A DNA stretch of 64,000 bases from an uncultured SAR86 cluster bacterium (GTDB lineage: Bacteria > Pseudomonadota > Gammaproteobacteria > Magnimaribacterales > D2472), in assembly GCA_943846785.1 (NCBI GenBank), contig OX044367.1:4276-68275 (forward strand), in the 5' to 3' direction. A program made the position numbers and the translations under genes. This document shows, piece after piece, positions 7,715 through 60,325 of this stretch. Position 1 is the stretch's first letter; every line of letters begins with the position of its first letter. The notes beneath the pieces are model-generated. The model did no database searches. It saw only the letters and a program-made list of their open reading frames with translations, and was not told where the DNA came from.

Positions 7715-8832
7715 TTAAGCTAAAAACTCTAAAATGCGCCCAGAGGCCAATCCATCACCATAAGGATTGTGAGCTTTGCTCATTTTTTGATATTCGTCAG
7801 AATCTGTTAGTAAAAGACTTACCTGACTGACTATTGTCTCAACATCTGTTCCAACTAACCTTACAGTCCCAGCATCAATAGCTTCAGGACGCTCAGTTGT
7901 ATCTCGCATGACAAGAACCGGCTTACCTAGGGAAGGCGCTTCTTCTTGAATGCCACCTGAATCGGTTAATATAATTGCTGCTCTATCCATTAAATAACAA
8001 AATGGGAGATACTGCTGTGGTTCAATTAAAAATACATTATCCAAATCATTGAGCAATCGATTTACTGGTTCATGTACCTTTGGATTAAGGTGAACAGGAT
8101 ATAAAACTTGAGCCTTCAGGATGCTTTACTGCAATTTGCCGCAGAGCTTCACAAATTCTTTCAAACCCACCACCAAAGTTTTCACGACGATGGCCTGTAA
8201 CTAATATTAATTTTTTATTTGGGTCAAGAAAATTGAATGAAGAAACTATGGTTTCATAAAGAGATTTTTCTTGCTTTAACTTTTCTCTTACCCAAAATAA
8301 AGCATCAATCACCGTATTTCCAGTTACGATAATATCATCTTCTGACACACCCTCATGTAGCAAATTATTTTTGGAACCAATCGTAGGGGCTAAATGATAA
8401 TTTGTAATCACACTAGTAAGCCTTCTATTAGCTTCTTCGGGCCATGGCGAATATATATTGCCTGTTCTTAGCCCTGCCTCAACATGGCCAACTTTAATTT
8501 TCTGATAATAGGCTGCCAATGATGCAGATAATGAAGTTGCAGTGTCCCCATGCACTAACACTATATCAGGCTTAAACTCCTCCAAAACTGGCTTTAAACC
8601 ACCAAGAATAGAAATTGTTACATCATTTAGTGTTTGATCTGATGTCATGATATTAAGATCGAAGTCAGGCTTTATTTCAAATAATTCTAAAACCTGATCA
8701 AGCATCTCGCGATGTTGAGCTGTTACACAGACCTTTGCATTAAAACGACCGTCAGCTTCAAGCGAATGAACTAATGGTGCCATCTTTATTGCTTCGGGAC
8801 GAGTTCCAAATACGCTTAGTATTTTTTTTCAT
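7715..8832 (-). pseudogene. wecB: UDP-N-acetylglucosamine 2-epimerase, non-hydrolysing, apparent frameshifts
   Basis: Fragments 8085-8783 (MAPLVHSL...[11 protein letters not shown]...) and 7715-8056 (...[27 protein letters not shown]). The ATG at 8832 is followed by a T8 run (8822-8829); with 7 bases it reads [24 protein letters not shown]. Confidence 0.9.
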
Positions 8833-8901
8833 ATCAATTATTTAAAGTTTGTATTTTTATTTTAAATTAATTTTTGTTAGTTGACATCAAAGATGAGTAG
8901 C

Positions 8902-9845
8902 TTAGGCAGTCTTTTTCTTAAAAACATAGTATTTTATAAGAACTAAAGAAATACTAAACATCCCACCCAATAGTGAGCTTAAGATTAAAATTAAGAGTCT
9001 TTTAGGCTCTGACTTTTGCTCCATCATTGCTGGAGGGTCAATGTAATCAAAAACGTAAAATTGATTGGCTTCAATTAGGGTTAACTTTTTAGTTTCTTCT
9101 TGCAGAGTTGAGCTAAGACTTGTTTAATTTCAGATAAACCTAGTCATTGAAATTTGTTGATTAAGATAGCTAACAGCCTTTTCTGATTCTGATTTATCTT
9201 TTTGTCTATAAAAACTATTAACTTCATTAACAACTAACTCAGCCCATTGCTTCGCAATAAATGGTGATTGGTGTTTGATTGATAGAGTGATGAAGCCAGA
9301 TTTTTTATCTTCACTTAAGCTTAAGTGTTTTGTTTAAATACTTCAAAGCTTTCTTGAGCACTTGGTATTTGTTGTTGGGTAAGAATAATCTCTAACCCAA
9401 GTATTGCTGTTCATTTCATAAATACTCTCATCATAAATCAGTGTATTTGTTTTAGAGTTCCAAGATTTAACAGCCATAAGATCTGGCAAGTAAATATTTG
9501 TCAGTATGTTGTTTTCAAAGAAACTCAGAGAGCTAATCTTTTGTATTGCTTTTGCAGAATTACCCTCATCACCACCAGAAGGAAGATTTATCCCAGCAAG
9601 CCCTGCAAGGCCGCTATAACTTCCAAGAGCTCCAGAAATGCCGCTAGATGAATTAACAGGAACTAGTAAAGCTTTAGATTCATATATATTAGGCAAGAGA
9701 GGCTATAAATAACTCCAATAATCGATACAAAAGCTGTTAGAGAAACAATAATCCATTTTCCCTCCAATAGAACATAAAAAAGTTCTCGAAGATCTATTTC
9801 ATCATCAAAATCGTTGGGATGTTTATTGCTATGTTCTTCTTGCAT
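8902..9845 (-). pseudogene. wzz: Polysaccharide chain-length determinant (Wzz family), several apparent frameshifts
   Basis: N-terminal piece with TM1 (DLRELFYVLLEGKWIIVSLTAFVSIIGVIYS), a periplasmic piece at 9343-9696, and C-terminal pieces read by eye (...SEDKKSGFITLSIKHQSPFIAKQWAELVVNEVNSFY...KRLLILILSSLLGGMFSISLVLIKYY) with TM2. Confidence 0.7.
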
Positions 9846-12365: not shown

Positions 12366-14154
12366 TATTTGATATTTTGTTTTATTAGATTAGCTATTTT
12401 GTCATTAATGCCTCTTACAGTCATTAAATCTTCTATATTTGCAGATTTTATATTTTTTAAACTTTTAAATTTTAGAAGTATCTTATTTTTTAATGCAGGG
12501 CCAATGCCTGGGATTAAGTCTAGTTGTGATTTTTTTATAGAGCCCCTTTTCTTCTTTCTTTGAGCAGTTATTGCAAATCTATGTGACTCATCTCTCATTT
12601 CCTGAAGAACAAGATATGCTTTTGAGTACTTATCTAATTCTACAATCACCATTATCAGCAAGAATGGTTTCAGTAGCTCTTACCCTGTTCGATCCTTTAA
12701 CAATTGAAATAACCTCAATATCGTTATAGATCGATTTATCAATTACTGATTTGCTATATTTCAACTGAGTTTTGCCGCCATCTATTAAAATGATATCTGG
12801 CTTAATATTAGGATCATCATAATACTTTATTCTTCTTTCAAGCACGTGTTCCAAGGAGCCCACATCATTACCAGACAACTCTTTCGGAATATTAAAAGTT
12901 CTATATTCTTTTTTTTGGGGCCTTGATTGGAAAATACCACACATGATGAAACAGCATGATCTCCAGAAATATGACTAATATCGTATGCCTCAATTTTTTT
13001 AATGTTATCTTTTAAACTCATAGCATTTTTAAGCTCATTAAATGCAAAGGTATATTTATCCTCTTTACTAATATGATTTTGTATAACTTGTTTAGCATTT
13101 ATTTTACAAAGATTAAAAATCGGTCTAATGGATTTATCAGGAGTATGGGTTAGATTTACTTTAACGTTATATTTTTTTTGAATTACTTTGGATAATAGGT
13201 CTTTCGATCTTAGTGCATCAGTAGACATAATTTTCTTTGGGATATCTGGCTGATTATCATAAAAGTTAATACTGCGCTTTGATAAACTTCCTCTAATGAA
13301 TCATAGTGAGCCTGTTTTATAAGATGAGTTTTTGTCCCTCTTATTTTTCCTCTTCTTACAACAATAATGCATATGCCTAGATAGTTATCTTCTGCATGGA
13401 CAGAAAAGATATCAACATCCCTAGCCAGAGTTACAACAGACTGCTCCTCTCTTAACAGTTGAAGTCTTCTTAGCTCTATCTCGAATCTCTGCTGCTTTTT
13501 CAAATTCAAGCTTTTTTGATGCTTTTTCAATATCTGAGGTTAGTTTATTGATAGTTTGATTATCAGAGGAGGAAAGGTAAGATTTTGCACTAGCAATATC
13601 CTCGAAGTAATCTGTTTTTGATATTTTTTTCACACATGGAGCTGAGCATCTTTTCATTTGAAATTCTATACATGGACGAGTCCTATTGGTAAAAGTTGTA
13701 TCACTACAATTTCTTACTTGAAAAATTTTTTGTATTTCTTTGATGGATTTCTTAACTGCTTCTGAGCTAACAAATGGTCCAAAGAATTTTGAATCAACAG
13801 CTTTCTTGGTTCTCTTTGAGTAAATACCTGGATACTCATGATCTAAAGAAAAGAAAATATAAGGATATGTTTTGTCATCTCGTAAAAGAATATTAAATTT
13901 TGGTTTATTTTCTTTGATCAGCATCTGCTCTAAAAAAGAGCCTCAACTTCATTCTTTGTTGTAAAAGTTTCTATATTGTCCGTTAGTAGCTTTATCTGTC
14001 TGGTTTTTCTATCTTTAAATGAGTTACCAAAATAGCTTGAAACTCTTTTTTTTAAATTTTTTGCTTTACCAATATAGATAATTTCGTGGTTGCTAAAAAA
14101 TTTATAAACTCCAGGTGTGCTCGGAACCTTTGTAAGCTCAACCGCCATGCTCAT
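12365..14154 (-). pseudogene. uvrC: Excinuclease ABC subunit C, at least five apparent frame breaks
   Basis: Six consecutive ORF pieces carry the GIY-YIG N-terminus (PGVYKFFSNHEIIYIGKAKNLKKRVSSYF), the UVR segment (EKASKKLEFEKAAEIRD), the endonuclease region, and the C-terminal RDESHRFAI plus HhH (IPGIGPALKNKILLKF). Confidence 0.9.
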
Positions 14155-15544
14155 CAAGATATTTGTTGGTAAAAATTTTCCCTGCACTAACCCCATATTG
14201 ATCAAATGGATTTATTTCTAGCATTTGGGAGGTTATAAAAGTTCTATGCTCCCATGAGGCGATTAAGTATCCAAGATTAAATGGATTCAATGTTTTTAGT
14301 GTAAATAAATTTGTAGGTACGTTTGAATTTACTTTTTCATGATCCTTTAGGTCAGCATTATCCCCATTAGCTAATAAATTTGCCTGAGCCTGAGACTGAG
14401 CAAAAAGTAATTTATTTTTATTCTTGTAATCTTCAATAGTAAATATATCTGCACATACAGAGGATGTTCCTTGGTGTAGTAACTGAAAATAGGAGTGCTG
14501 TGCTGTTGAGCCAAATCCACCAAAAACTATTTGACCCGTTTTTTGAAATATTGAATTTTTGTTTGGTTGCTTACCTATTGATTCCATTTCTAAGCTGCTG
14601 AGCATAATCATTAAAGTACCTCATTTTCCAACTATATGTTAGTAAGACTCTTGTCTCTCTATGCATAAAATTGCTATACCAAAGATCACTGAATGAAAGA
14701 GTCTTAATAAAATCTTTATACTCGTTATCATATAAAAGCTGGTTATCTGCCTCTCCGCCACCTTTTAAAAAATCTATAAAATCTTTACCAAGCTCCAAAA
14801 TTGCAGGAAGTGAAATAGGTGACCACATTGAATATCTTCCTCCAATCTCATTGGGAAAAGTAATCATATTATTAAAACCAAGTTCTTTTGCTTTATTTGG
14901 TTGAGAGGTTATTGCAATAAAATGATCATTAAATTTACAATTTTGTAATATCCAGTTTTTTGCAAGCTCAAGGCTTTGAAGGGTTTCATCTGTGACTAAA
15001 TGACTTAGATGAAACAATAAAAAAGGTTTCTTCTTGGACTAACGGCTCAACAGTTTCATTGAACTCAATATGATCTGGCCCTGTTAAAAAAATATGATTG
15101 AAATGTCTTGTACTTGAATTAGTTAAAGTTTCTATAAGAAGCTTAGGGCCCTCAAAAGAACCACCAATACCAATAGTTACAATATTTTTTATACCTTTTC
15201 TAAGAGCTTAGTCCTGAGCTCAATGCAATCCTGGATTGAATTTCTGCAATTTTGTAATAGCTCTTCTGACTGAAAATTATTAGGATTTTCTGAAAAAATA
15301 TCCGATATACATGATGAAGAGCCGACTGTTTTTCTGTTACGTTTATTTCTTCTCCATGAAATAAATCTTTAATACCCTGATCAATATCTAAATCTTTATA
15401 GGTTAAATCAAATAAATCAAATATTTCTTTGTTAAAGCCTTTTAAGAGAGATTTGTAATTTAATGCTTTACTATTAAAAGAGAAGTTAAATATTTCGCCA
15501 TTAGTATTTTGAGATTTTTCTAGAAGCTCTTCTTTGATATTCAT
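14138..15544 (-). pseudogene. pgi: Glucose-6-phosphate isomerase, at least three apparent frame breaks
   Basis: Pieces at 15200-15544, an unlisted piece at about 15000-15200 (GIGGSFEGPKLL read by eye), 14571-15017 (IGGRYSMWSPISLP) and 14138-14611 (...GYLIASWEHRTF...DQYGVSAGK). Confidence 0.9.
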
Positions 15545-32856: not shown

Positions 32857-33414
32857 TTAAACAACTTCAGATAAGACTTGAGTATCTGAATCTTCGTCTA
32901 TTTCAGGAAGCTCTGGAAGGCTTGAAATATTCTTAAGGTTTAAATCATCTAAAAATTCCTTTGTGGTTGAGTATAAAGCAGGTCTTCCAGGAGCATCTTT
33001 AAAACCAGTAACCTTTATCCAGTTTCTTTCAAGTAATGATCTAACACTTTGAGTACTAACACTGACACCTCTAATATCTTCAATATCACCTCTAGTAACA
33101 GGTTGTTTATATGCAATGATAGAAATTGTTTCCATCAAAGCTTTTGAGATTCTTGGAGTTCTTTCATTCCATAAATGAGTAATTGGGGCACTATAAGATT
33201 GTTTAATTTGCAACCTAAAACCTGATGCTACTTCAATGATTTCTAAAGATGATGCCTCATATCTATGCTCAAGCTCATTAATGCATTTTTTAATATCAGA
33301 TAGTTCTGCAATTACTCCGTCTGACTCCAATAGTCCTCTTATTTCAGAAAGTCTAAGTGGTCTTCCAGCACCAAATAATAATGCTTCAACTGTATTCACT
33401 GTTTGTATATTCAA
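32857..33414 (-). CDS. scpB: Segregation and condensation protein B
   Basis: 185 aa: VEALLFGAGRPLRLSEI...IIAYKQPVTRGDIEDIRGVSV... (tandem wHTH ScpB pattern). Confidence 0.9.
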   Translation of the reverse strand: MNIQTVNTVEALLFGAGRPLRLSEIRGLLESDGVIAELSDIKKCINELEHRYEASSLEIIEVASGFRLQIKQSYSAPITHLWNERTPRISKALMETISIIAYKQPVTRGDIEDIRGVSVSTQSVRSLLERNWIKVTGFKDAPGRPALYSTTKEFLDDLNLKNISSLPELPEIDEDSDTQVLSEVV

Positions 33415-33416
33415 TT

Positions 33417-34217
33417 TTAAGCTCCTCTAAGAGATTTTAGAAAAATTTCATCTGTTTTATTTTGAATCAATTCAACATGCCCATCTTTAGCTAACTCTAA
33501 AGAAGCTAAAAAAGTAACAACCACCCCATGCCTGCCTTCGGCTTTTCTTAATGTTTTTGAAAAACTTACTACATTTCTTTTTGCTAGGATTTCCATGATT
33601 ATTTGAATACGTTCTTGTGTAGACAATTCTTCAAAATCTATTTGATGACTTAATTTTAAATCAGGCCTTGATTTTATTTCGTAAAAAATAGAGGCTAGTT
33701 CTTCTTTTGTGATGAATATTTCTTTTTTTTCAATCTTTATCTCAGGCAGAGCTGCTGATGCTGTATAAAAATCTCTATCTACTCTTGGAAGTAAAGCTAG
33801 TTTTTCTGATGCAAGCTTATATCTTTGATACTCTTGCAATCTTTTAATTAATGCTGATTTTGGATCTTCCTCCTCATCATCATGTATTTCTCTTGGGAGC
33901 ATCATCCGAGATTTAATTTCTGCCAACGTTGCAGCCATTACTAAATATTCTGCAGCTAACTCAAATTGTAAAGCATCCATTAAATCAATATATTCGATGT
34001 ACTGATCGGTAATATTAGAAACATCTAACTCAAGAATATTAATATTTTCTTTTTTAATGAGATAAAGAAGAAGATCCATTGGACCTGAGAATGTTTCTAA
34101 GCAGAGCTCTAAGGCATTAGGCGGTATAAATAAATCCTCAGGGAGTGTTTCATAGGGCTGGCCCATGACCATCGGAAACTCTAATTGTGTTTGAGTAGTA
34201 TTTTGCATGATAAACAC
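33417..34217 (-). CDS. scpA: Segregation and condensation protein A (kleisin)
   Basis: 266 aa: ...FSGPMDLLLYLIKKENINILELDVSNITDQYIEYI.... Lies directly upstream of scpB. Confidence 0.9.
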   Translation of the reverse strand: MFIMQNTTQTQLEFPMVMGQPYETLPEDLFIPPNALELCLETFSGPMDLLLYLIKKENINILELDVSNITDQYIEYIDLMDALQFELAAEYLVMAATLAEIKSRMMLPREIHDDEEEDPKSALIKRLQEYQRYKLASEKLALLPRVDRDFYTASAALPEIKIEKKEIFITKEELASIFYEIKSRPDLKLSHQIDFEELSTQERIQIIMEILAKRNVVSFSKTLRKAEGRHGVVVTFLASLELAKDGHVELIQNKTDEIFLKSLRGA

Positions 34218-34392
34218 TACATAGTGTAAGTTTTAAAGCTTATTAATACAACATATAGTGTATGTATAACAACAAAATAATTTTTAAAAAGAAGAGTAAA
34301 GATTATTTTAAGTATCTTTTTTTAATAATACCTACTATTTTAATTTCATTCATTTAATATTGATGACGTGAATATTTAAAACTAATTGATAA

Positions 34393-35442
34393 ATGAACTA
34401 CTCAACAGATAATACAAGAATAATTGATAGAAAAAAGGTCCCTGCACCCTACGAGCTTGTTAATAAACTTCCAATTGACGATGCAATTTCAAAATTAGTT
34501 TATGGGACTAGACAAGAAATAAGTCAGATACTTCATAACAAAGATGATAGATTGCTTGTGGTTGTTGGGCCCTGCTCAATTCATGATCCAGATAGCGCCA
34601 TTGAATATGCTAAAAAATTAATTGAGCAGAATATAAAATATAAAGAAGAGCTCCTTATCGTTATGAGGGTTTATTTTGAAAAACCCAGAACAACAGTTGG
34701 CTGGAAAGGCTTGATAAATGATCCTGATTTAAATGAGACATATAATATTGGCAAGGGTGTCGAAATGGCAAGAAAGCTTCTTATAGACTTGGCAAGATTA
34801 AACCTTCCTGCAGGCACTGAATTCCTAGATCCAATTTCTCCTCAGTATATTACAGACATAATATCTTGGGGTGCGATAGGTGCCAGAACTGCAGAAAGCC
34901 AGATTCACAGAGAGTTAGCTTCAGGTTTGTCATGCCCAATAGGTATAAAAAATGGTACTGATGGAAGCCTAAAAGCTGCGATTGATGGAATTCAGGCAGC
35001 AAATCATTCACATGTATTTTTAGGCGCTACAAAAGAAGCCGATATTGCTATGCTTAAGACTGCAGGAAATAATGACAGTCATATAATATTAAGAGGTGGT
35101 AAAGAACCAAATTTTGATGCTGAATCGGTTGCATCAACGCTCTCTGCACTCAAGGAAGCTGAGGTTAATGAATCAATCATGATTGATGCAAGTCATGGTA
35201 ATAGTCAAAAACAATTTAAAAAACAAATATCTGTTGTAGATACAATATCTCAACAAATTGAGGCAGGTAATAAAAATATAACTGGTGTAATGATAGAAAG
35301 TCATCTCGTTGAAGGTAACCAAAAAATTACAGACAGCCTCAATTATGGACAAAGCATAACCGATGCATGTATTGGATGGGATGATACGATTACTTGCCTT
35401 GATAGCCTTAGTAGTGCTGTTAAAAAAAGGAGAGGTTTGTAG
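34393..35442 (+). CDS. 3-deoxy-7-phosphoheptulonate (DAHP) synthase, class I
   Basis: Intact 349 aa: ...LLVVVGPCSIHD...YFEKPRTTVGWKGLINDP...IGARTAESQIHRELASGLS...IDASHGNS. Confidence 0.95.
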   Translation: MNYSTDNTRIIDRKKVPAPYELVNKLPIDDAISKLVYGTRQEISQILHNKDDRLLVVVGPCSIHDPDSAIEYAKKLIEQNIKYKEELLIVMRVYFEKPRTTVGWKGLINDPDLNETYNIGKGVEMARKLLIDLARLNLPAGTEFLDPISPQYITDIISWGAIGARTAESQIHRELASGLSCPIGIKNGTDGSLKAAIDGIQAANHSHVFLGATKEADIAMLKTAGNNDSHIILRGGKEPNFDAESVASTLSALKEAEVNESIMIDASHGNSQKQFKKQISVVDTISQQIEAGNKNITGVMIESHLVEGNQKITDSLNYGQSITDACIGWDDTITCLDSLSSAVKKRRGL

Positions 35443-35446
35443 AGCA

Positions 35447-36235
35447 TTGAAAGGTTCTGAAAAAATTTTTTTCTCTAAAGACGTTGCTGAAACACTTGGA
35501 ATTGAGTCGGCAATAATATTAGAGTTATATCAAACTCAAAAAATATCTCATTCAAATGATTTAGAAGCTATAAAGAAATCTTTAGTAGAAGTTGCTCCTT
35601 TTTTAGATCAAAAGAATTTAGAAGAGAATATTAATAAATTAGTAAAATATAAATTTATAAACGCCATTAAAAAAATAGGTGGCTTTAATGTCCAAGAAGC
35701 GCCTACTAATAATTCGCAAAAAAATAAAATCACATCAGAATGGAACCCATCTAAAGAAGCAATTGAGATTCTTCAAATGAGCCAAATTGAAGAAGATTTT
35801 TATTATAAAAAACTTCAAGAATTTAAATTATATTGGATAGAGAGAGGACAAGAAAGGAATAACTGGAACACCTCATATATTGATTATATTAGGAGGGAAT
35901 GGGCTAAAGAAAAAAGCTCTAATAAAGGCCTACCATACGTATTAGATACAAACTGGACACCAAGTGATGATGTGTTTGATATCCTTGAATTATCTGAAAT
36001 ATCAAAAGAATCAGCTTCAAGATACTTAAGAGAGTTTATACTGTACTGGAAAGAAAATGGCTCAGCCTTTACAACATGGAATTCAAAATTTATAGAACAT
36101 GTTAAAAGAAGGCATCTAGGCAATCAAAATCAAAACAATGAAGAAAGTAAAAAACATACTGAACCAGGAAAGTACACAAAGGACTTTACATCAAGAAAAA
36201 GTGACTCATCCTGGGCATCAGAAATTGAACTCTAA
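35447..36235 (+). CDS. wHTH + two tandem DnaT-like C-terminal domains (replication/primosome-associated protein candidate); start uncertain
   Basis: The track ORF begins at 35363 inside the DAHP synthase gene. The first plausible start after its stop is TTG 35447, preceded by AGGAGAGG. The N-terminal FSKDVAETLGIESAIILELYQ is wHTH-like. Two repeats (nt 35741-35902 and 35954-36112) read WNPSKEAIEILQMSQIEEDFYYKKLQEFKLYWIERGQERNNWNTSYIDYIRREW and WTPSDDVFDILELSEISKESASRYLREFILYWKENGSAFTTWNSKFIEHVKRR. Confidence 0.55.
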   Translation: MKGSEKIFFSKDVAETLGIESAIILELYQTQKISHSNDLEAIKKSLVEVAPFLDQKNLEENINKLVKYKFINAIKKIGGFNVQEAPTNNSQKNKITSEWNPSKEAIEILQMSQIEEDFYYKKLQEFKLYWIERGQERNNWNTSYIDYIRREWAKEKSSNKGLPYVLDTNWTPSDDVFDILELSEISKESASRYLREFILYWKENGSAFTTWNSKFIEHVKRRHLGNQNQNNEESKKHTEPGKYTKDFTSRKSDSSWASEIEL

Positions 36236-36782
36236 TAAAAAAGAATTTATAGATTCAATAGATAATCTATTTTTGAAGCTGGAGCTTGCGTATCACTATC
36301 AATTTTATAAAGTATTTGGAACAGATGAGCGATTAAGTGAAGGTAAAAAACTATGGGCTGTAAGTTTAAAAAGCTTTTCATTAGAAACTATTGCACAAGC
36401 TATTGAAAACGTAATCGGATCACAATCCTATCTTCCTACTCTTACAGATATTGTTAAGGCTTGCTCAGAAATAAATAGTTATGATGGCTTTCCATCAGTT
36501 GAGGAGGCCTACATTGAAGCACGAAAATCCTTTTCTCCAAGACAGCAATATCCATGGAGCCATCCTATTGTTTACTTTACTGGTAAGAAGATAGGTTGGA
36601 ATTTATTAGATGAGAGAGATAGTAAAGAGCTATTTCATTCCTTTAAGAAAATTTTTAATAGATACAAAAAAAATGCTGTGGATGGTGTAGAGTTTAAAAT
36701 TGAGCCCATAAAAGAAATACCTCAATCTAAGCCTTTAAATAAAAAACTATTTGAAAGTTTAAGAAAGAAACATAAGGTTTAA
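36138..36782 (+). CDS. Phage lambda replication protein P-like protein (helicase-loader family candidate); start uncertain
   Basis: 214-aa ORF. YLPTLTDIVKACSE...GFPSVEEAYIEARKSF...QQYPWSHPIVYFTGKKIGWNLL parallels, from memory, lambda P ...FLPSPGQFVAWCREE...GLPNVSELVDMVYEYC...ESYPWKSNAHYWLVTNLYQNM. The ATG at 36138 overlaps the upstream ORF by 98 nt; an in-frame TTG near 36224 is an alternative start. Confidence 0.55.
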   Translation: MKKVKNILNQESTQRTLHQEKVTHPGHQKLNSNKKEFIDSIDNLFLKLELAYHYQFYKVFGTDERLSEGKKLWAVSLKSFSLETIAQAIENVIGSQSYLPTLTDIVKACSEINSYDGFPSVEEAYIEARKSFSPRQQYPWSHPIVYFTGKKIGWNLLDERDSKELFHSFKKIFNRYKKNAVDGVEFKIEPIKEIPQSKPLNKKLFESLRKKHKV

Positions 36783-36863
36783 CTAATTAAATATTTACCC
36801 TTCATTCATAGAGTAGTATCATATGATGTATGCAGTGTAAACATTATGACTAATTATTAAGAT

Positions 36864-37733
36864 ATGACTAAAAATATAAGAGTATCGCTATACATTTTCA
36901 TCCCTGTTCTGCTATGGATGCTATCAGGCTTCCTAGTAAATGAGGTCGAAGATGCTGACACTTTAGAAACCAATCTTTTTAAAGTAGGCAGTAAATTAAG
37001 TAATGCTATTTCATATCAACCATCAATCAAATTAAAAGCAACCTCTCGATCAGAAGCAAGAGTTAATGTAAGGGCAAAAACATCAGGAGAAGTTGTTAAA
37101 ATTGGTGCTACTCAGGGACAATTTATTAATAAAGGATCAATTTTATGCAGTCTAGGTGTAGTTGAATTAAATAGAACTGAAGTTAAGGCTCCTTTTTCAG
37201 GCTATATTGAACAAATTGTGAAGCCAGGTAATTTTTTAGAAAGAGGTCAAAACTGCGCAACAATTATTCAACTAAATCCAATTATATTTGTTGCCGAGGT
37301 TCCTGAATTTAGCATTAATAAGATTGAAACTGGTCAAGAGGTTTCTATGAAACTTGTTACAGGGGAATTATTAAAAGGAAATTTAACTTTTGTTTCTAAA
37401 AGTGCATCGCCCTCAACAAGAACTTTTAAGGTTGAATCACAAATACCAAATAAAGATGGCGAGGTAAGAGATGGCATTACTGCTGAAATGACTATTAAGA
37501 CAAAAATAGTTAAAGCTCATAAAATTTCACCTTCAATATTGCTATTGAATGATGCAGGTATAGTTGGTGTGAGATCAATTAAAGATAATATTGTGAAATT
37601 TAATGAAGTGATAATACTTGAAGACTCAGAGTCAGGATTATGGATTACCGGATTACCAGAAACCCTTGAATTAATTGTTCAAGGTCAAGGCTTTGTAGAA
37701 GATGGTCAAAAGGTAATATCTGACAGGTTATGA
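36864..37733 (+). CDS. RND efflux periplasmic adaptor (membrane fusion protein)
   Basis: 289 aa with an N-terminal TM/signal anchor, lipoyl-like and beta-barrel segments (VRAKTSGEVVKIGATQGQFINKGSILCSL...VKAPFSGYIEQIV). The stop overlaps the RND pump start (ATGA). Confidence 0.85.
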   Translation: MTKNIRVSLYIFIPVLLWMLSGFLVNEVEDADTLETNLFKVGSKLSNAISYQPSIKLKATSRSEARVNVRAKTSGEVVKIGATQGQFINKGSILCSLGVVELNRTEVKAPFSGYIEQIVKPGNFLERGQNCATIIQLNPIIFVAEVPEFSINKIETGQEVSMKLVTGELLKGNLTFVSKSASPSTRTFKVESQIPNKDGEVRDGITAEMTIKTKIVKAHKISPSILLLNDAGIVGVRSIKDNIVKFNEVIILEDSESGLWITGLPETLELIVQGQGFVEDGQKVISDRL

Positions 37734-40700
37734 CTAAAATTGTAGATTTTGCTTTATCTAAAGCAAAAACAACTCTGATGATCGCATTTATGATCATCAT
37801 TGCAGGCTCTTATGCGAGACAAGAAATATCTATTGCAGCCTCTCCTAATGTTCAGCTTCCATTTATAAGTGTATCTGTATATTTAGATGGTGCTTCTCCA
37901 AATGATACTTCAAGGCTTATAGCAAAACCTTTAGAAAATAGACTTATGACAATCACTGGTGTTAAAAACATCAGCTCTAGAAGTGTTCTAAGTTTTGCTA
38001 GAATTTTTTTAGAATTTGAAGTTGGATATGATATGGATAAGGCTTTGGTTGATATCAAGCAAGCCGTTGAAGAAACCAAGTATGAGCTTCCTAGGGAAGC
38101 TGAAGATCCACAAATATCAGAATATTCTGAGGCAAGCTTTCCTGTAATGAATATTAGTATTGTTGGAAAAAGTTCTATTAGACAAAAGGTTTTTTATGCA
38201 AAAGATTTAAAAGATAAAATAGAGGGAATTGAAGAAATTCTTGAAGCTAATCTTTCAGGAGCACCTGAGGAAGTTCTTGAAGGTGTTATTAATAAATCTC
38301 GTATGGAGTCATACGGAGTAACGCTTAGCGATATTTACTACTCTGTTGCTAATAACAATCTTATTATTCCTGGTGGCACTCAAGATACAGGCAAAGGTAG
38401 TTTTAATATAGAGGTGCCAAGTGTTATAGAGTCTGCTCAAGACGTCTATTCTATTCCAATCAAGGTTACAGAAGATGCAATAGTTACTTTAGGTGATATA
38501 GCAGACATTAAGAGGACATTTAAAGATTTTACTTCCTATGCAAGAGTAAATGGCTTAGATGCTGTAACCCTCGAAGTACGTTTAAGAGAGGGAGCAAATG
38601 CAATTGATGCATCTAATGACATTCGTAATATTTTAGAAGAGTATAAAAAGACTCTGCCTGAGAACTTAAAGATTTTAATATCAGATGATGATACTGTTTA
38701 TGCTATTGAAATGGTGAAAGAACTGAATGGCAATATTATTACTGCTGTTGTTCTTATCATGGTGCTTGTTATTGCAAGCATGGGCTTCAGGGTATCTATG
38801 TTAGTTGGTCTTTCAATACCATTCTGTTTTTTATTTACTTATTTAACATTTTATTCTTTTGGTATGGAAATTAATTTTCTAGTCATGATGGGTTTATTGC
38901 TAGGGATGGGAATGTTAATTGATGGAGCAATTGTTATAACTGAATATGCTGATAAAAAAATTAGTGAGGGTCTTTCAAGATCTGAAGGCTACAAAATGTC
39001 ATCAAAAAGAATGTTTTATCCAATTCTTGCCTCAACAGGTACAACTATGGCAGCATTTATTCCTGTTATGCTTTGGCCTGGTTTCACTGGACAGTTCATG
39101 CGATATCTTCCTATTACCGTTTTTACTGTCTTGATAGGTTCATTATTATATTCGTTAGTTTTAATACCAGTTTTGGGTACCTATCTAGGGCAAACAGAAT
39201 CTACTCTTAATAAAAAAGAAAAGAGAGAGTCAATATTTAAAAAATTGACAGAACTTTATGGAAAACGTATTTCAAAATTTGTTAAAAATCCAGTTGAGAC
39301 ATGTTTAGCAGTATTTTCTCTTCTACTACTAATTATTATGAGCTATTCATATTTTGGTAAAGGTACTATCTATTTTGCTCTTGTTGATCCTGTTCAGGCT
39401 GAGGTAACAATTAAAGCTAGAGGAAATTATTCTGCTCTTGAGACTAAAGAAATTGTTGAGAAAGTTGAAGAGAGATTTCTAGCTGTAGAAGGCTTAAGTA
39501 GTGTCTACTTAAGGGCTGGTACCGAGTGGTGGAACTCTGGTGCAGACAAGATAGGTGGAGGTTTTATCGAAGTAGCTCCAGCTGCTAACAGAACAAGATC
39601 AGGCCTTGAAATAATGGAATCATTGAATGAATCAGTAAACAATCTTCCTGGAATATTTGTTGAGATTAAGGCTGATATTGGAGGGCCTTCTTTTGACACT
39701 CCAATAGAATTGGACATATTGGGCAACTCAGAATTTGCAGTAAATCGTGCGGTTGATGAGGTTGAAAGCTATCTCAGGAATGAAGTAACTGGATTGATTA
39801 ATATAACATCGACTAAGCCCTACCCCTCAGTAGAATGGAGTGTAGAAGTGGACAAACAAAAGGCAGCACAACTTGGAGTGAGTGTTGTAGATGTGGGAGC
39901 TCTAGTTCAAATGCTAACAAATGGTTATAAAGTAGGAGAATACAGACCTGATGATTCAAGAGATGAAGTAGAAATTAGAGCAAGGTTTCCTGAATCCGAT
40001 AGAACCATCACAGGTATACAAAATCTTAATGTAACGACTCTTAAAGGATTAGTTCCAGTAAGCTCTTTTATATCTGTAATCCCTAAAGAAAATAGACAGA
40101 CTATTAATAGAAGAAATGGTAAATTTTCACATGAAATTGGGGCTGCTACACTTGATGAATCTGAAGTTTCTGCAAAGGTTCAAGAAATTGATCAGTGGCT
40201 TCAAAAAAAGGATCTAGGACAAGGTGTTACATATAAATTTTCTGGCATGGCAGAAGAAACAGAAGAAGTTAATAACTTTATGATTGCAGCTGGAATAATG
40301 GCGGTTTTTATTATGCTTGTAATGCTGCTTACACAATTTAATAGTTTCTATCAATCATTCATAATACTAACATCTGTAACTATTTCATTTGTTGGGGTTC
40401 TTTTAGGTCTTTTAATTACAGGCAAGCCTTTTAGTACTACCATGACTGGACTTTCAATAGTGACTTTAGCTGGAATTGTGGTTAATAATAATATTGTATT
40501 AATTGATACTTTCAATAAATTAAGATCAGAATCTCCACATATAGAACAGTCTGAACATATCATTAATGCATGCAAACAGAGACTTAGACCTATCTTATTA
40601 ACCTCTTTAACTACTATATTTGGTCTCTTACCTTTGGCAATGGGATTAAGTGTAGATATTATTGCTAGAGATATAATTGTAGGGAGTAGAATTGTTGACT

Positions 40701-40840
40701 GGTGGTCAAATTTGGCAGTTTCAATTGTATTTGGTCTTGGTTTTAGTACCTTTATAACTCTAATACTAACTCCAGCGGTATTAGCACTTCCATACGCTTT
40801 AAAAAATGATTTTAAAAAAATTTTTAAAGCAGTCAATTAA
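37730..40840 (+). CDS. RND family efflux transporter permease (AcrB/AcrD/AcrF family)
   Basis: Intact 1036 aa with a 12-TM, two-large-loop architecture. Typical sequences include ...GMLIDGAIVITEY... and ...GIVVNNNIVLIDTFN.... Confidence 0.95.
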   Translation: MTKIVDFALSKAKTTLMIAFMIIIAGSYARQEISIAASPNVQLPFISVSVYLDGASPNDTSRLIAKPLENRLMTITGVKNISSRSVLSFARIFLEFEVGYDMDKALVDIKQAVEETKYELPREAEDPQISEYSEASFPVMNISIVGKSSIRQKVFYAKDLKDKIEGIEEILEANLSGAPEEVLEGVINKSRMESYGVTLSDIYYSVANNNLIIPGGTQDTGKGSFNIEVPSVIESAQDVYSIPIKVTEDAIVTLGDIADIKRTFKDFTSYARVNGLDAVTLEVRLREGANAIDASNDIRNILEEYKKTLPENLKILISDDDTVYAIEMVKELNGNIITAVVLIMVLVIASMGFRVSMLVGLSIPFCFLFTYLTFYSFGMEINFLVMMGLLLGMGMLIDGAIVITEYADKKISEGLSRSEGYKMSSKRMFYPILASTGTTMAAFIPVMLWPGFTGQFMRYLPITVFTVLIGSLLYSLVLIPVLGTYLGQTESTLNKKEKRESIFKKLTELYGKRISKFVKNPVETCLAVFSLLLLIIMSYSYFGKGTIYFALVDPVQAEVTIKARGNYSALETKEIVEKVEERFLAVEGLSSVYLRAGTEWWNSGADKIGGGFIEVAPAANRTRSGLEIMESLNESVNNLPGIFVEIKADIGGPSFDTPIELDILGNSEFAVNRAVDEVESYLRNEVTGLINITSTKPYPSVEWSVEVDKQKAAQLGVSVVDVGALVQMLTNGYKVGEYRPDDSRDEVEIRARFPESDRTITGIQNLNVTTLKGLVPVSSFISVIPKENRQTINRRNGKFSHEIGAATLDESEVSAKVQEIDQWLQKKDLGQGVTYKFSGMAEETEEVNNFMIAAGIMAVFIMLVMLLTQFNSFYQSFIILTSVTISFVGVLLGLLITGKPFSTTMTGLSIVTLAGIVVNNNIVLIDTFNKLRSESPHIEQSEHIINACKQRLRPILLTSLTTIFGLLPLAMGLSVDIIARDIIVGSRIVDWWSNLAVSIVFGLGFSTFITLILTPAVLALPYALKNDFKKIFKAVN

Positions 40841-41088: not shown

Positions 41089-41968
41089 ATGGTCTCTCAA
41101 CACCTATCGGAAGTAAAAGAGCTTGTAAAAATTAAGGTTACCGATAGTATTGGAAATTCAAATCTAATAGAAGAATCTATGCTTTATTCAGCGATTGCTG
41201 AAAGTAAAATGGTTCGAGCTGGTTTAATATTTGCTTCTGCTAAAACGAATCCTTATCTTGAAATGGAAAGCGTAGTTACATTAGCTTCATCAATTGAGTT
41301 AATGCATACTTATTCGTTAGTTCATGATGATCTTCCATGTATGGATGATGATGATATAAGAAGAAATCAGCCATCAAACCACATTAAGTATGGAGAAGCT
41401 AATGCTGTACTTACCGGAGATGCTCTTCAGGCTCTTGCATATGAGATTATATGCAATGATATTAATTTAACTAATAAAAATAAAGTTAGTGCAATTAAAT
41501 TGCTAACTGAAGCTTGTGGAAAAAATGGAATGGTTCATGGTCAACACTTGGATATTCAAAATGAAAATAATATAAATGAAGTTAATCAAGAAATTCTAGA
41601 TCATACGCATCAACTAAAAACAGGCAAATTAATAGAATGTTCTGTTCTATTTGGTCAGCTAAATAATGAGTTAAGCGATGATCAGTTAAAGAATTTTAAA
41701 AATTTTAGCAGTAAGCTTGGGTTAGCATTTCAAATTATTGATGATGTTCTTGATGTTACAGAGTCATCAGAAGTTTTAGGAAAAACTAATAACTCAGATA
41801 TTAAAAATAACAAACAAACATATGTAGATCTCATTGGCATTAAGCCTGCGCAAGATAGAGCTAGAAATTTGATAGAATCAGCAATTACAAGATCTCAATA
41901 TGAACAATCTTGATGGAACAAATAGTCTGATTGATATTGCTTACTACCTTATAGAAAGGAGGAATTAA
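41089..41968 (+). pseudogene. ispA: (2E,6E)-farnesyl diphosphate synthase, single apparent frameshift about 25 codons from the 3' end
   Basis: Both Asp-rich motifs are present (LVHDDLPCMDDDDIRR; FQIIDDVLD). The listed ORF stops at 41913. The +1 frame from about 41900 reads NNLDGTNSLIDIAYYLIERRN and ends in TAATG, overlapping the dxs start (41966-41970), which is the expected native C-terminus. Confidence 0.9.
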
Positions 41969-43839
41969 TGAAAGTATTTAAAGAAATACCTGATGTTATA
42001 CCCTCTACTCCAATTCTTGATACTGTAGATGTTCCTGCAGATATACGCTCTTTTTCTATTTTAGAACTTGAGAGTCTTGCAAATGAATTAAGAGAATTTT
42101 TATTATATTCTGTTGGCCAGAGTGGTGGTCATTTAGGCGGAGGACTTGGGGTCGTTGAATTAACTGTAGCTCTTCATTATTTGTATAATACTCCAGATGA
42201 TAATTTAATATGGGATGTAGGGCATCAGGCATATCCTCATAAAATTATTACTGGCAGAAAAGATGAAATAAAAAGTATTCGTAAAAAAGATGGATTAGCG
42301 CCATTCCCATCAATCAATGAAAGTGAATATGATGCTTTTGGAGTTGGTCACTCGAGTACATCGATAAGTGCGTTATTAGGTATGGCAATTGCCTCTCAAA
42401 ATGAAAACTTAGATAGAAAACATGTAGCTGTAATTGGTGATGGAGCTATGACTGCTGGTATGGCATTTGAGGCGCTGAGTCATGCGGGGCATTTAAAACC
42501 AAATATGTTAGTAATTTTAAATGACAATGATATGTCTATTTCTGAAAATATTGGTGGTTTGTCAAACTACTTCTCTAGAATATGGGCATCAAAAACTTAT
42601 AAGGGAATCAAGAAAGGTGGAGCAAGCGTCTTGAAACCCTTACCACAGGCCTATCATCTTGCTAGAAAAGTAGAAACACAAATGAAAGCTATGGTTGCTC
42701 CAGGAAATATCTTTGAAGAACTTGGGCTGAATTATATTGGTCCAATAGATGGTCATAATATTCAGGAAATGATAGATGTTATTGGTAATCTTAAAGATTT
42801 TGATGGTCCTCAGTTTCTTCATGTTATTACAAAAAAAGGTGCTGGATTAGATCCAGCAGAGGCAGACAGAATAGAGTTTCATGCTATTGGTAAGATTAGT
42901 GGAGTTAAATCTGCAAATAGCGCAAAGAAAAAAAAATATCAGGACATCTTTGGTGACTGGATTGTTGATATGGCAAATGAAAACAATGATCTAGTTGCAA
43001 TTACACCAGCAATGAGAGAAGGATCTAGTTTAGTAGAATTTAGTAGAAAATATCCTGAAAAATATTTTGATGTTGCTATTGCTGAACAACATGCAGTTAC
43101 ATTTGCTGCAGGGTTGTCTAGAGAAAATAAAAAACCAGTGGTAGCAATTTACTCAACTTTTCTTCAAAGAGCTTATGATCAGTTTATTCATGATGTAGCA
43201 GTGCAAAATTTAGATGTAACATTTGCTATAGATAGAGCAGGGTTAGTAGGAGAAGATGGCCCTACTCATTCTGGTAATTATGATATTGCATATCTTCGAT
43301 GTATTCCAAATATCATAATTATGACGCCATCTAATGAACAAGAAACAAGGTTAATGCTTTCAACAGGTTTTGATTATAAAGGTCCGGCTGCTATTAGATA
43401 TCCAAGAGGAACTGGGCCAGGCACTGAAGTAAGCAAATCTTTAGAGACTGCTGAAATAGGCAAAGGTAAGATTATTTTAAAGGGGTCTGAAAAAATAATA
43501 TTTCTTAATTTTGGCTCTCTTCTTCACGAGGCATATGAGGTTTGTACTAATCTTAATCTAACTCTTCTTGATATGAGGTTTGTTAAGCCACTAGATAAAG
43601 AGATGCTTAGAGACTATTTTAAAAACGCAGATATATTCATTTCTTTAGAAGATGGCTCTATTGCTGGTGGTGCAGGCAGTGCTGTTCAAGAATTCTGTTC
43701 AGATGAGGATATTGAAATTAGATCAAAATTATTTGGTATACCTGATAAATTTATAGAGCATGCTTCAAGAGAAGAGATGATTGCTGAATGTGGTCTAGAT
43801 AGTATATCTTTAGAGGAAAGTATAAAGAACTATTGTTAA
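41968..43839 (+). CDS. dxs: 1-deoxy-D-xylulose-5-phosphate synthase
   Basis: Intact 623 aa: ...GGHLGGGLGVVELTVALHY...WDVGHQAYPHKIITGR...GDGAMTAGMAFEALSHAG.... Confidence 0.97.
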   Translation: MKVFKEIPDVIPSTPILDTVDVPADIRSFSILELESLANELREFLLYSVGQSGGHLGGGLGVVELTVALHYLYNTPDDNLIWDVGHQAYPHKIITGRKDEIKSIRKKDGLAPFPSINESEYDAFGVGHSSTSISALLGMAIASQNENLDRKHVAVIGDGAMTAGMAFEALSHAGHLKPNMLVILNDNDMSISENIGGLSNYFSRIWASKTYKGIKKGGASVLKPLPQAYHLARKVETQMKAMVAPGNIFEELGLNYIGPIDGHNIQEMIDVIGNLKDFDGPQFLHVITKKGAGLDPAEADRIEFHAIGKISGVKSANSAKKKKYQDIFGDWIVDMANENNDLVAITPAMREGSSLVEFSRKYPEKYFDVAIAEQHAVTFAAGLSRENKKPVVAIYSTFLQRAYDQFIHDVAVQNLDVTFAIDRAGLVGEDGPTHSGNYDIAYLRCIPNIIIMTPSNEQETRLMLSTGFDYKGPAAIRYPRGTGPGTEVSKSLETAEIGKGKIILKGSEKIIFLNFGSLLHEAYEVCTNLNLTLLDMRFVKPLDKEMLRDYFKNADIFISLEDGSIAGGAGSAVQEFCSDEDIEIRSKLFGIPDKFIEHASREEMIAECGLDSISLEESIKNYC

Positions 43840-58764: not shown

Positions 58765-59371
58765 TTTATTAAAGAAATTTGATTCTATCAAAGGATTTCT
58801 TGCTCATGAGGAAGGAGTGTTTTTATATCAATTAACTAAAGAATTTTGTCTTAAGAATTGTGCGGTTGAGATAGGTTCTTATTGTGGTAAATCTGCGTGT
58901 TATATAGGCCTAGCATGTAAAGAAAATCAAACAATACTGCATACTATTGATCATCATAGAGGTTCAGAAGAGCAGCAACTTGGTGAGGAATATTTTGACC
59001 CCGAAGAGTACGATTATATAAAAAAAAGAGTTGATACCTTGCCTACTTTGAAAAGAAATATAGAGATTAATGGCTTAAGTAAATCTATTTATGCTGTTGT
59101 CGGTCATTCAAAACAAATAGCAAATGACATGCAAAATAATATAGATTTAGTATTCATCGATGGGAGTCATACTTTTGAATCGGCAAGAACTGATTATTCA
59201 TCTTGGAAAGATAAGATAAGAATTGGTGGTATATTAGCCATTCATGATGTCTATGACAGTGAATTAGAAGGCGGTCAAGCACCAAGAGAAATATATGAAA
59301 AAGCCCTTTCTGAAAATTTTATTTTAATTAAAAGGGTTAATAGCTTGGTCGCCCTGCAAAAGATTGTTTAA
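58757..59371 (+). CDS. Class I SAM-dependent methyltransferase (Methyltransf_24 / TylF-like type)
   Basis: The ATG at 58757 overlaps the lpxL stop (ATGGATGA). ...AVEIGSYCGKSACYIG...DLVFIDGSHTFESARTDYSSW...GGILAIHDV. Confidence 0.75.
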   Translation: MDDLLKKFDSIKGFLAHEEGVFLYQLTKEFCLKNCAVEIGSYCGKSACYIGLACKENQTILHTIDHHRGSEEQQLGEEYFDPEEYDYIKKRVDTLPTLKRNIEINGLSKSIYAVVGHSKQIANDMQNNIDLVFIDGSHTFESARTDYSSWKDKIRIGGILAIHDVYDSELEGGQAPREIYEKALSENFILIKRVNSLVALQKIV

Positions 59372-60325
59372 ATAAAAAAACACATTGCCTTTACTGGTTT
59401 CTTTTTTATTAAATGTAAATAAAGCATGTGCAGCAATGATTACGGCAGCATTGGTCCATGTTGAATTCTCTTCTGGCCAAAAAATATCCATTTTATATTG
59501 ATAGCCTGTTGGAAAAATCCCGTTATCATTTTTGAACTGAAGTATATTGTTAAAAATTTTTTTTGCGGTCTCTATATCGCCCAAGACTAGTAAGGCAATA
59601 ATGCACTCGCAGCTTTCTGCAATAGTAACCCAAGGCTCTTCTTTAACACATTTAACCCCAAGTCCTTCCACATAAAAATCTTTAAGAGAATTATGAAATA
59701 CATTTTTATTATTCTTCACGCCACACATATATGGATAATAAAAATCCATGGAAAATCTTGAGCGATCAATTCCATCTCTATTAAACTTAGAGCTCCAAAG
59801 CTTTTGATCAAATTTTATTTTTGAAGAATTGTTAAGAGCTTTTAAAGAAAGAAAAATTGACATTGACGCTGTAATTAATGAATTATCACATAAGCCATTT
59901 TTGTCCCTAGCCCAGTTATAGTAACCATCTGTATCCCTAAATCTATCAAGTTGATCAAAAATAATCTTTATTTTTGATTTTATATCAGATGTTATAAGGT
60001 CACCTCTCCCCATTAATACAGCTTGCATCAAGGGAAGAATGATATATGGAGCATGATGACTTTCGAAATGATTGTGAGTAATTTTATTATTTTGAAATTC
60101 AGGATAAATAAGACCATCTTGACTTAAAGTATTAAAAAACCAATCTACTCCTTTAATAAAGGGATCCCATTCCTCAAATAATGCAAGAGCAATTAAGCAT
60201 TCACAATGATCCCATGGATCACATTTACCTTTTTCATCCCATGTAATTCTGCCATCATCTTTTTGATTATAAATAATCCAATCTTTTGATTCTTTAAAAG
60301 CTTTTCTTGACTCATTCCACTTCAT
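59324..60325 (-). CDS. Alpha/alpha-toroid protein with prenyltransferase/squalene-cyclase-type (QW-like) repeats; function unknown
   Basis: Intact 333 aa with four QW-like repeats: KDWIIYNQKDDGRITW, VDWFFNTLSQDGLIYPEF, IFDQLDRFRDTDGYYNW and IFNNILQFKNDNGIFPTGY. There are paired helices with CEC motifs (WDHCECLIALAL; AESCECIIALLVL). The 3' end overlaps the convergent methyltransferase by 48 nt. Confidence 0.5.
   Translation of the reverse strand: MKWNESRKAFKESKDWIIYNQKDDGRITWDEKGKCDPWDHCECLIALALFEEWDPFIKGVDWFFNTLSQDGLIYPEFQNNKITHNHFESHHAPYIILPLMQAVLMGRGDLITSDIKSKIKIIFDQLDRFRDTDGYYNWARDKNGLCDNSLITASMSIFLSLKALNNSSKIKFDQKLWSSKFNRDGIDRSRFSMDFYYPYMCGVKNNKNVFHNSLKDFYVEGLGVKCVKEEPWVTIAESCECIIALLVLGDIETAKKIFNNILQFKNDNGIFPTGYQYKMDIFWPEENSTWTNAAVIIAAHALFTFNKKETSKGNVFFYLNNLLQGDQAINPFN

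Follow-up and report, generated by a model that had tools for sequence, protein, structure and literature searches.

The genes dopC and dopE were described by Brezellec et al. (2017, Genome Biol Evol; PMC5509034), who proposed DopCE as a helicase loader for bacteria without the usual loaders. dopE encodes a lambda-P-like protein; dopC, which precedes dopE, encodes a protein published as a helix-turn-helix (HTH; HTH_36 or lambda-O-like) region with a DnaT C-terminal motif; DopC is without the C-terminal domain of lambda O and has a DnaT-type sequence in its place (PMC5509034). The hosts in that paper are Cellvibrionales and some Oceanospirillales, and SAR86 is not covered (PMC5509034). Here we examine two adjoining genes, open reading frames (ORFs) A and B, in a 64-kb stretch of DNA from an uncultured SAR86 cluster bacterium (contig OX044367.1; hereafter the window), and compare them with this system.

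Two further precedents bear on the comparison. Lambda P opens the ring of the replicative helicase DnaB, and its C-terminal "lasso" helix binds the docking helix–linker helix (DH-LH) elements of DnaB (PMC12661323). The C-terminal domains of DnaT form a filament on lagging-strand single-stranded DNA (ssDNA) in which every domain–domain interface accommodates a dinucleotide, as seen in a preprimosome structure of 2026 (PMC13377028).

We put at about 0.72 the probability that the two genes are the SAR86-cluster ortholog of dopC–dopE, a phage-derived two-gene module fixed in the chromosome, with the loader mechanism inferred below.

Correspondence with canonical DopC and DopE

ORF A occupies positions 35447–36235 (262 codons from a TTG start) and ORF B positions 36138–36782 (214 amino acids from an ATG start), where a preliminary description of this DNA had placed them; these genes and all features of the locus given below lie on the forward strand. 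With ORF A as the query, 460 relatives were found among 1.84 billion representative proteins, and a scan for dopC with one genome per species gave at least 560 loci. For counts on the canonical form we kept 80 loci, from Cellvibrio, Simiduia, Gilvimarinus, Marinimicrobium, Maricurvus, Porticoccus, Halieaceae, Spongiibacteraceae, Pseudohongiella, Litoribacillus, and Litoribrevibacter.

The second gene ties the SAR86 pair to this set. ORF B aligns with canonical DopE collinearly over its full length, with 19 invariant residues, and is 34% identical to DopE of Cellvibrio japonicus (P0420, "replication protein P"); it is orthologous to the named DopE proteins (C. japonicus CJA_3124 and relatives). 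In the reverse direction, the ORF that follows dopC matches a hidden Markov model (HMM) of SAR86 DopE in 79 of the 80 canonical loci (E 1e-21 to 1e-41). For the first gene, hhalign pairs the N-terminal domain of ORF A with canonical DopC N-termini (97.3%, E 1.8e-11). ORF A lies directly upstream of dopE and co-evolves with it, and a DnaT motif stands where lambda O has its C-terminal domain. The guess in the preliminary description that the pair might be dopC/dopE is thus borne out by a collinear ortholog in ORF B and, in ORF A, by the common N-terminal domain, the DnaT domains, and a Ser-Trp (SW) motif.

The same description had gone further, offering the duplicated DnaT domains as a possible variant of the system and taking the architecture for an undescribed one. 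Neither holds: HTH plus DnaT motif is the published architecture (PMC5509034), and three tandem DnaT repeats are present in canonical DopC at all 80 loci, so that SAR86 DopC, with two, has fewer DnaT domains rather than more. Pfam likewise finds three DnaT domains in DopC of Cellvibrio fibrivorans, and PF06992 in its DopE. When a repeat HMM was run on the best 150 of the 460 ORF A relatives, 89 had three repeats, 44 had two, and 7 had four. The second SAR86 repeat scores best against the third canonical repeat (R3) in 48 of 48 SAR86 sequences, and the first resembles R2 or R3, never R1. SAR86 may have lost its equivalent of R1, which would fit a streamlined genome, or R1 may instead have been acquired elsewhere. 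The text of PMC5509034 mentions neither tandem DnaT copies nor a Trp motif in the DopC tail, and three family-wide features appear to be undescribed: DnaT domains in 2–4 copies, the SW motif of the DopC tail, and a gene overlap of 89–101 nt.

Four contigs with a three-repeat DopC and a DopE of Cellvibrionales type (L011, L045, L074, and L080) are labeled "MAG: Klebsiella pneumoniae", "uncultured Klebsiella sp.", "Glaciecola sp.", and "Alteromonadaceae bacterium Bs31". Probably the labels or the binning are wrong; otherwise the range of DopCE is wider than reported.

ORF A: start, DnaT-like domains, and conserved tail

The longest reading of ORF A starts from an ATG at 35363, inside the DAHP (3-deoxy-D-arabino-heptulosonate 7-phosphate) synthase gene, and overlaps aroG by 80 nt. 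The TTG at 35447 is preceded by GGAGAGG (35429–35435), lies 4 nt past the aroG stop, and coincides with the MKD or MKK starts of homologs; we take the gene to be 35447–36235. With its start 4 nt after the aroG stop, dopC is probably co-transcribed with aroG.

Pfam places two matches to PF17948 (DnaT DNA-binding domain) in ORF A (E 3.7e-36, 123 bits, cut-off 25). The first DnaT-like domain, a helical bundle at 35726–35923, contains the best stretch of the PF17948 match and is also found by the repeat HMM and by Foldseek (4OU6, 6AEQ); the second, at 35951–36130, is found by PF17948 and the repeat HMM and is the counterpart of canonical R3. Within them, the two tandem repeats of about 55 amino acids (nt 35741–35902 and 35954–36112) translate as first described and share 19 of 53 residues by our own count on the translations. 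An AlphaFold model built with 48 homologs has a pLDDT (predicted local distance difference test) of 76, rising to 84–91 in the repeats and ∼82 in the N-terminal domain. Among PDB structures, the model most closely matches the DnaT C-terminal domain with ssDNA (4OU6) and the ssDNA-binding domain of Salmonella DnaT (6AEQ), both with Foldseek probability 1.0 and a TM (template modeling) score of 0.63 on the target. The profile search and the fold therefore agree with the DnaT-like identity first proposed for the repeats, and the Escherichia coli DnaT sequence that had been quoted in its support is present in the PDB alignment (4OU7). Two other assignments for ORF A were rejected: a derivative of the C-terminal part of lambda O, and an ortholog of E. 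coli DnaT, the DnaT match being limited to the C-terminal domain.

The N-terminal domain (35450 to about 35674) comprises some 75 amino acids in four helices. A winged HTH had been claimed here, and it was not confirmed: Pfam finds no HTH family, HTH_36 (PF13730) included, at E < 10, and Foldseek gives only weak matches, to PerR (probability 0.15–0.25). PerR is a winged-helix regulator. Comparison of DopC N-termini by hhalign with phage HTH_36 proteins and lambda O N-termini gave nothing significant, and the HTH label of this domain therefore rests on the 2017 paper.

The repeats are followed by a conserved tail (36131–36232; EPGKY..DF..RK.D.SWA). The motif at its end, D-x-S-W-A, is conserved, its Trp is invariant across SAR86 and canonical sequences, and it is a candidate partner-binding peptide. 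ORF A has no significant match in PHROGs and none by tblastn in 50,697 phage genomes, NCBIfam matches neither ORF A nor ORF B, and iterons and DnaA boxes are absent from within the gene.

ORF B: a probable lambda-P-like loader

The likeness of ORF B to lambda P, first noted by eye, is supported by profile and by fold. ORF B passes the threshold of Pfam PF06992, Phage_lambda_P (30 bits, cut-off 26; E 5.4e-7), and matches PHROG 109, "P-like helicase loader", at E 6e-15; by Foldseek, its model matches the lambda P chains of the DnaB–lambda P complex 9OA1 over 189–201 columns (E 1e-4). The protein consists of a disordered N-terminal stretch of 32 amino acids, a helical core, and a C-terminal helix (residues 202–211). 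This helix is conserved, with P199, L200, L208, and R209 nearly invariant, and is a candidate counterpart of the DnaB-binding lasso of lambda P. The central part of DopE (LW..L..F..E.I.....YLPTL) also resembles the N-terminal domain of the SPP1 protein G39P (1NO1), with a profile E of 0.014 and, by fold, a TM score of 0.81 over 69 columns.

A conserved overlap joins the two genes

The ATG of dopE lies inside dopC, and the two genes overlap out of frame by 98 nt (36138–36235), against 4 nt for lambda O and P. The arrangement is a property of the family: every locus of the canonical set with both ORFs shows an overlap, and in 20 of 21 loci of SAR86, Cellvibrionales, and Litoribacillus type the distance from the dopE ATG to the dopC stop is 89–101 nt. 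The remaining locus, L080, offers no more than a TTG, at −38. The overlap encodes the DopC tail and the DopE leader at once: M1 and G26 of DopE are conserved, and the TGG codon of the invariant tail Trp dictates the conserved Gly in the leader. Within the overlap, the ratio of nonsynonymous to synonymous substitution rates (dN/dS) is higher in the DopE frame (0.59) than in the DopC frame (0.20), over 32 codons only, and the DopC frame looks the more constrained of the two. The text of PMC5509034 does not mention a gene overlap.

In one SAR86-type locus, L100 (36% DopC identity), the stored gene call after dopC (8776–9120) is only 114 amino acids long and has no Pfam match. The stop-to-stop ORF nevertheless has a normal DopE N-terminus, and the gene may carry a frameshift or an early stop.

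Residency in SAR86 genomes

The flanks are housekeeping genes, as first described, with scpB, scpA, and DAHP synthase upstream and a resistance-nodulation-division (RND) pump downstream. The aroG-type DAHP synthase gene (34393–35442) lies directly 5′ of dopC in every SAR86-type locus examined, and the six SAR86 loci with enough downstream sequence all have the RND efflux pair (membrane-fusion protein and pump; 36864–40840) 3′ of dopE. In eight further SAR86-type loci, one of them on a 1.14-Mb contig, dopC follows directly on DAHP synthase while DopC identity to the window falls from 80% to 33%, and the order scpB-scpA-aroG-dopC-dopE-RND-RND-xseB-ispA-dxs is kept wherever the contigs reach. In comparison with an 80%-identical relative, dopC has a dN/dS of 0.13 and dopE one of 0.09 (neighbors, 0.03–0.10). 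The pair is thus resident in SAR86 and under purifying selection.

Its surroundings are of the same kind. The GC content of the pair (∼31%) is that of its flanks, and the rest of the window holds housekeeping genes (gyrA, pntAB, pheA, serC, glyA, nrdR, rib genes, purA, hflKC, miaA, and waaA). No prophage genes were found in the 64 kb, and the borders of the pair are free of tRNA genes, integrase, and att-like repeats, as had been stated. The locus has no iteron array and no DnaA boxes, which occur at chance level in the scan; promoter and terminator sites are no more frequent than in shuffled sequences; GC skew across the window tracks gene orientation only and gives no origin signal; and PADLOC matches no defense family.

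These data weigh on two readings that deny the pair a loader role of its own. Phage relatives exist, and they speak for a decaying prophage or mobile-element remnant without a cellular role: ORF B has relatives among Pseudomonas phage P-like loaders (26% identity), and viral contigs carry pairs of an HTH_36-plus-DnaT gene with a P-like gene, as well as tandem-DnaT proteins. Several observations contradict a remnant: all SAR86-type loci examined, including those with identity as low as 33%, have the pair between aroG and the RND pump; dN/dS is 0.09–0.13; and phage genes, tRNA genes, att-like repeats, a GC shift, and any close phage match for ORF A are absent. Because of the fixed synteny, the purifying selection, and the housekeeping window free of tRNA genes at the locus borders, iterons, DnaA boxes, and defense matches, we reject this reading as having a negligible chance of being right; in SAR86 the pair is neither sporadic nor part of a prophage, one of the outcomes on which the preliminary description had made its case depend.

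The second reading is a phage-interference device, in which the resident P-like protein holds DnaB back from incoming phages and a separate housekeeping loader serves the cell. It takes up a speculation of the 2017 paper that a domesticated loader could hamper phage replication, and lambda P does compete with DnaC for DnaB (PMC5509034). The lack of a PADLOC match argues against it, and the fixed position, the single conserved lineage, and the congruent DopC and DopE trees are unlike defense islands. We rejected a defense system as very improbable on these grounds; interference would be at most a side benefit of a loader role.

One pairwise comparison shows a step in divergence across the locus. 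Between the window (32857–40837) and L103, synonymous divergence is 1.2–1.4 in scpB, scpA, and aroG and 0.88 in dopC, and only 0.26–0.43 in dopE, the membrane-fusion protein, and the RND pump, which suggests a recombination breakpoint near dopC/dopE between two SAR86 lineages.

Evolutionary relationships and viral relatives

SAR86 is placed in Gammaproteobacteria incertae sedis in the NCBI taxonomy. A metagenome-assembled genome annotated as "SAR86 cluster bacterium" contains a fragment 100% identical to ORF A. Relatives of the two proteins, clustered at 90%, number 1177 for ORF B and 251 for ORF A and are nearly all metagenomic; some carry the NCBI names "replication protein P" or "DnaT-like ssDNA-binding domain-containing protein". 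In neighbor-joining (NJ) trees, SAR86 is monophyletic for DopE (197 of 200 replicates) and DopC (200 of 200) and groups with Litoribacillus and Litoribrevibacter (84% and 71%, respectively), and the groupings of the two proteins are congruent. Gene context gives a parallel: xseB-ispA-dxs lies ∼3 kb downstream of dopCE in Litoribacillus and Litoribrevibacter (L002 7800–10495, L003, and L004) and follows dopCE and the RND pair at 41089–43839 in the SAR86 window. Other canonical loci have no SAR86 flank gene in common, save one weak short-chain dehydrogenase/reductase match in L045. The grouping of SAR86 with Litoribacillus fits common descent with the canonical module, and could also be a product of long-branch attraction. 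Rooting with phage P failed because the distances are saturated, the P protein of phage Ab31 attaching inside the canonical group, and we therefore make no claim on one versus several domestication events.

Similar parts occur in viral contigs. In L090 (1080–2445), a gene for HTH_36 with one DnaT domain precedes a weakly P-like gene; L095 (1561–2917) and L093 (7608–9306) have one DnaT domain and no HTH match, again followed by a weakly P-like gene. The gene pairs of L090 and L095 overlap by ∼100–140 nt, and the P-like partners match at E ∼1e-6. L082 (2862–3659) combines two DnaT domains with a replication-initiator-like N-terminus and has no P-like neighbor; its module includes methyltransferases, NinB, and NinG, and a helicase gene lies two genes upstream of the DnaT-domain gene.

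Proposed mechanism and its weight

The lambda-P fold and C-terminal helix of DopE, the precedent of the DnaT filament, and the tandem domains of DopC together lead us to propose that DopC recruits DopE–DnaB to ssDNA. The C-terminal helix of DopE would bind the DnaB hexamer at DH-LH and open the ring, as lambda P does. DopC would bind ssDNA through its DnaT-like domains, as the filament of DnaT C-terminal domains in the 2026 structure suggests, and would amount to a short covalent version of that filament with the interfaces in cis. Its N-terminal domain or its invariant C-terminal tail, the candidate contact sites with DopE, would bring DopE–DnaB to the ssDNA marked by DopC. Loading might take place at unwound oriC, at abandoned forks, or at both, and the module would stand in for DciA or DnaC and possibly for DnaT too.

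Where DopCE acts is the point on which another reading differs. DopCE might serve mainly in replication restart, with DopC as a DnaT analog downstream of PriA and DopE loading DnaB at abandoned forks, and with oriC served by DnaA and DopE alone or by another loader. The only characterized relative of the DopC repeats is indeed DnaT, which works in restart and whose C-terminal-domain filament receives lagging-strand ssDNA from PriB; a dnaT-like gene followed by a loader gene recalls the E. coli operon of dnaT and dnaC; and Brezellec et al. raised restart as an option (PMC5509034). The match to DnaT is, however, restricted to its C-terminal domain, the DnaT N-terminal domain and PriB-docking linker being undetected in DopC, and strict co-occurrence and a conserved overlap with the loader gene suggest a single unit wherever DopE acts. 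A role mainly in restart is in our judgment unlikely, though it overlaps with the loader reading and does not exclude it.

Several points count against the identification of the pair as a DopCE loader as a whole. The HTH expected at the DopC N-terminus escaped Pfam, hhalign, and Foldseek in this analysis. The sequence signal linking ORF B to lambda P is weak, at 30 bits in Pfam, and when the DopE-family profile was compared with PDB sequences lambda P was absent at E ≤ 1, so that the fold search alone found it. The view of dciA and dnaC/dnaI is confined to the 64 kb of genome in the window, which contains none of them. The NJ trees are crude, and DopE could not be rooted against phage P. Literature searches turned up no experiment on DopC or DopE, and nothing linking SAR86 to DopE, DciA, or DnaC.

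A fuller scenario can be drawn, which we regard as possible but, taken jointly, rather less than an even chance. SAR86 would be without DciA, DnaC, and DnaI and would depend on a minimal DopCE serving both initiation and restart. DopC would be a covalent two-domain ssDNA clamp that delivers DopE-opened DnaB at oriC and stalled forks, and the overlap of ∼90–100 nt would tie the synthesis of DopC and DopE together. SAR86 would descend from an ancestor that domesticated the module in the Cellvibrionales/Oceanospirillales lineage.

In the surface ocean, few bacterial clades are as abundant as SAR86. The identification would extend a known system, DopCE, the proposed third bacterial helicase-loader system, to this clade. 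In a compact genome, the pair keeps a constant position and is subject to purifying selection, which gives independent comparative support that it is needed and is not a phage leftover. With a DopC of 262 amino acids and two DnaT domains and a DopE of 214 amino acids, the SAR86 pair is the shortest form found here and convenient for biochemistry and structural work.

Other observations in the window

Many housekeeping genes on the reverse strand between 2700 and 22000 are in pieces. UDP-glucose dehydrogenase is split into 6878–7705 and 6433–6828, UvrC into 12827–13228 and 13421–13924, and Pgi into 14571–15017 and 14138–14611; UDP-GlcNAc 2-epimerase is represented by two partial ORFs (3779–4645 and 8085–8783), PyrF by a partial one, and ribosomal protein S1 by a fragment. 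Between 17.8 and 22.0 kb there is no ORF longer than 90 amino acids, with GC content normal there, and 22–64 kb is intact. The broken genes look like assembly indel errors, or else pseudogenes. Two reverse-strand ORFs, of 496 amino acids (93–1583) and 333 amino acids (59324–60325), have no Pfam family at E ≤ 1e-4.

Comparison with known systems

The SPP1 loader/inhibitor G39P has one domain in common with DopE, with marginal sequence similarity. The relatives on viral contigs (L090, L093, L095, and L082) draw on the same domain vocabulary and in some cases share the gene order and overlap; they differ in being viral and sporadic and in having P-like partners of weak similarity, and L082 has no adjoining P-like gene.

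Each ORF A repeat corresponds by Pfam and fold to the C-terminal ssDNA-binding domain of E. coli and Salmonella DnaT. Since only that domain aligns, neither the N-terminal oligomerization domain nor the PriB-docking linker of DnaT was detected in ORF A, which sets it apart from DnaT proper. DnaT also builds its filament from separate protomers, whereas DopC has tandem domains in one chain, and the partner is DnaC for DnaT and a lambda-P-like protein for DopC.

With lambda O and P, the pair has in common the lambda-P fold of ORF B (9OA1), which also passes the PF06992 threshold, and the order of an initiator-like gene followed by a loader gene. ORF B and lambda P are only ∼13% identical, ORF A has no ori iterons, and no similarity to the lambda O N-terminus was detected. 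The SAR86 genes are resident and not in a prophage, unlike a lambdoid prophage replication module.

Canonical DopC and DopE (PMC5509034) are the closest match. They differ from the SAR86 pair in having three DnaT domains and a DopC of 350–410 amino acids, against two domains and ∼262 amino acids in SAR86, where R1 is missing. Identity between the two forms is 25–34% for DopE and ∼29–40% for DopC over the region of repeats plus tail. The SAR86 context, from aroG to the RND pump, is also its own, xseB-ispA-dxs being common to the Litoribacillus group only. In gene order, in the overlap of ∼90–100 nt, in the N-terminal, DnaT, and SW parts of DopC, in a collinear lambda-P-like DopE, and in a chromosomal context that is not a prophage and has no iterons, the SAR86 and canonical pairs are alike.

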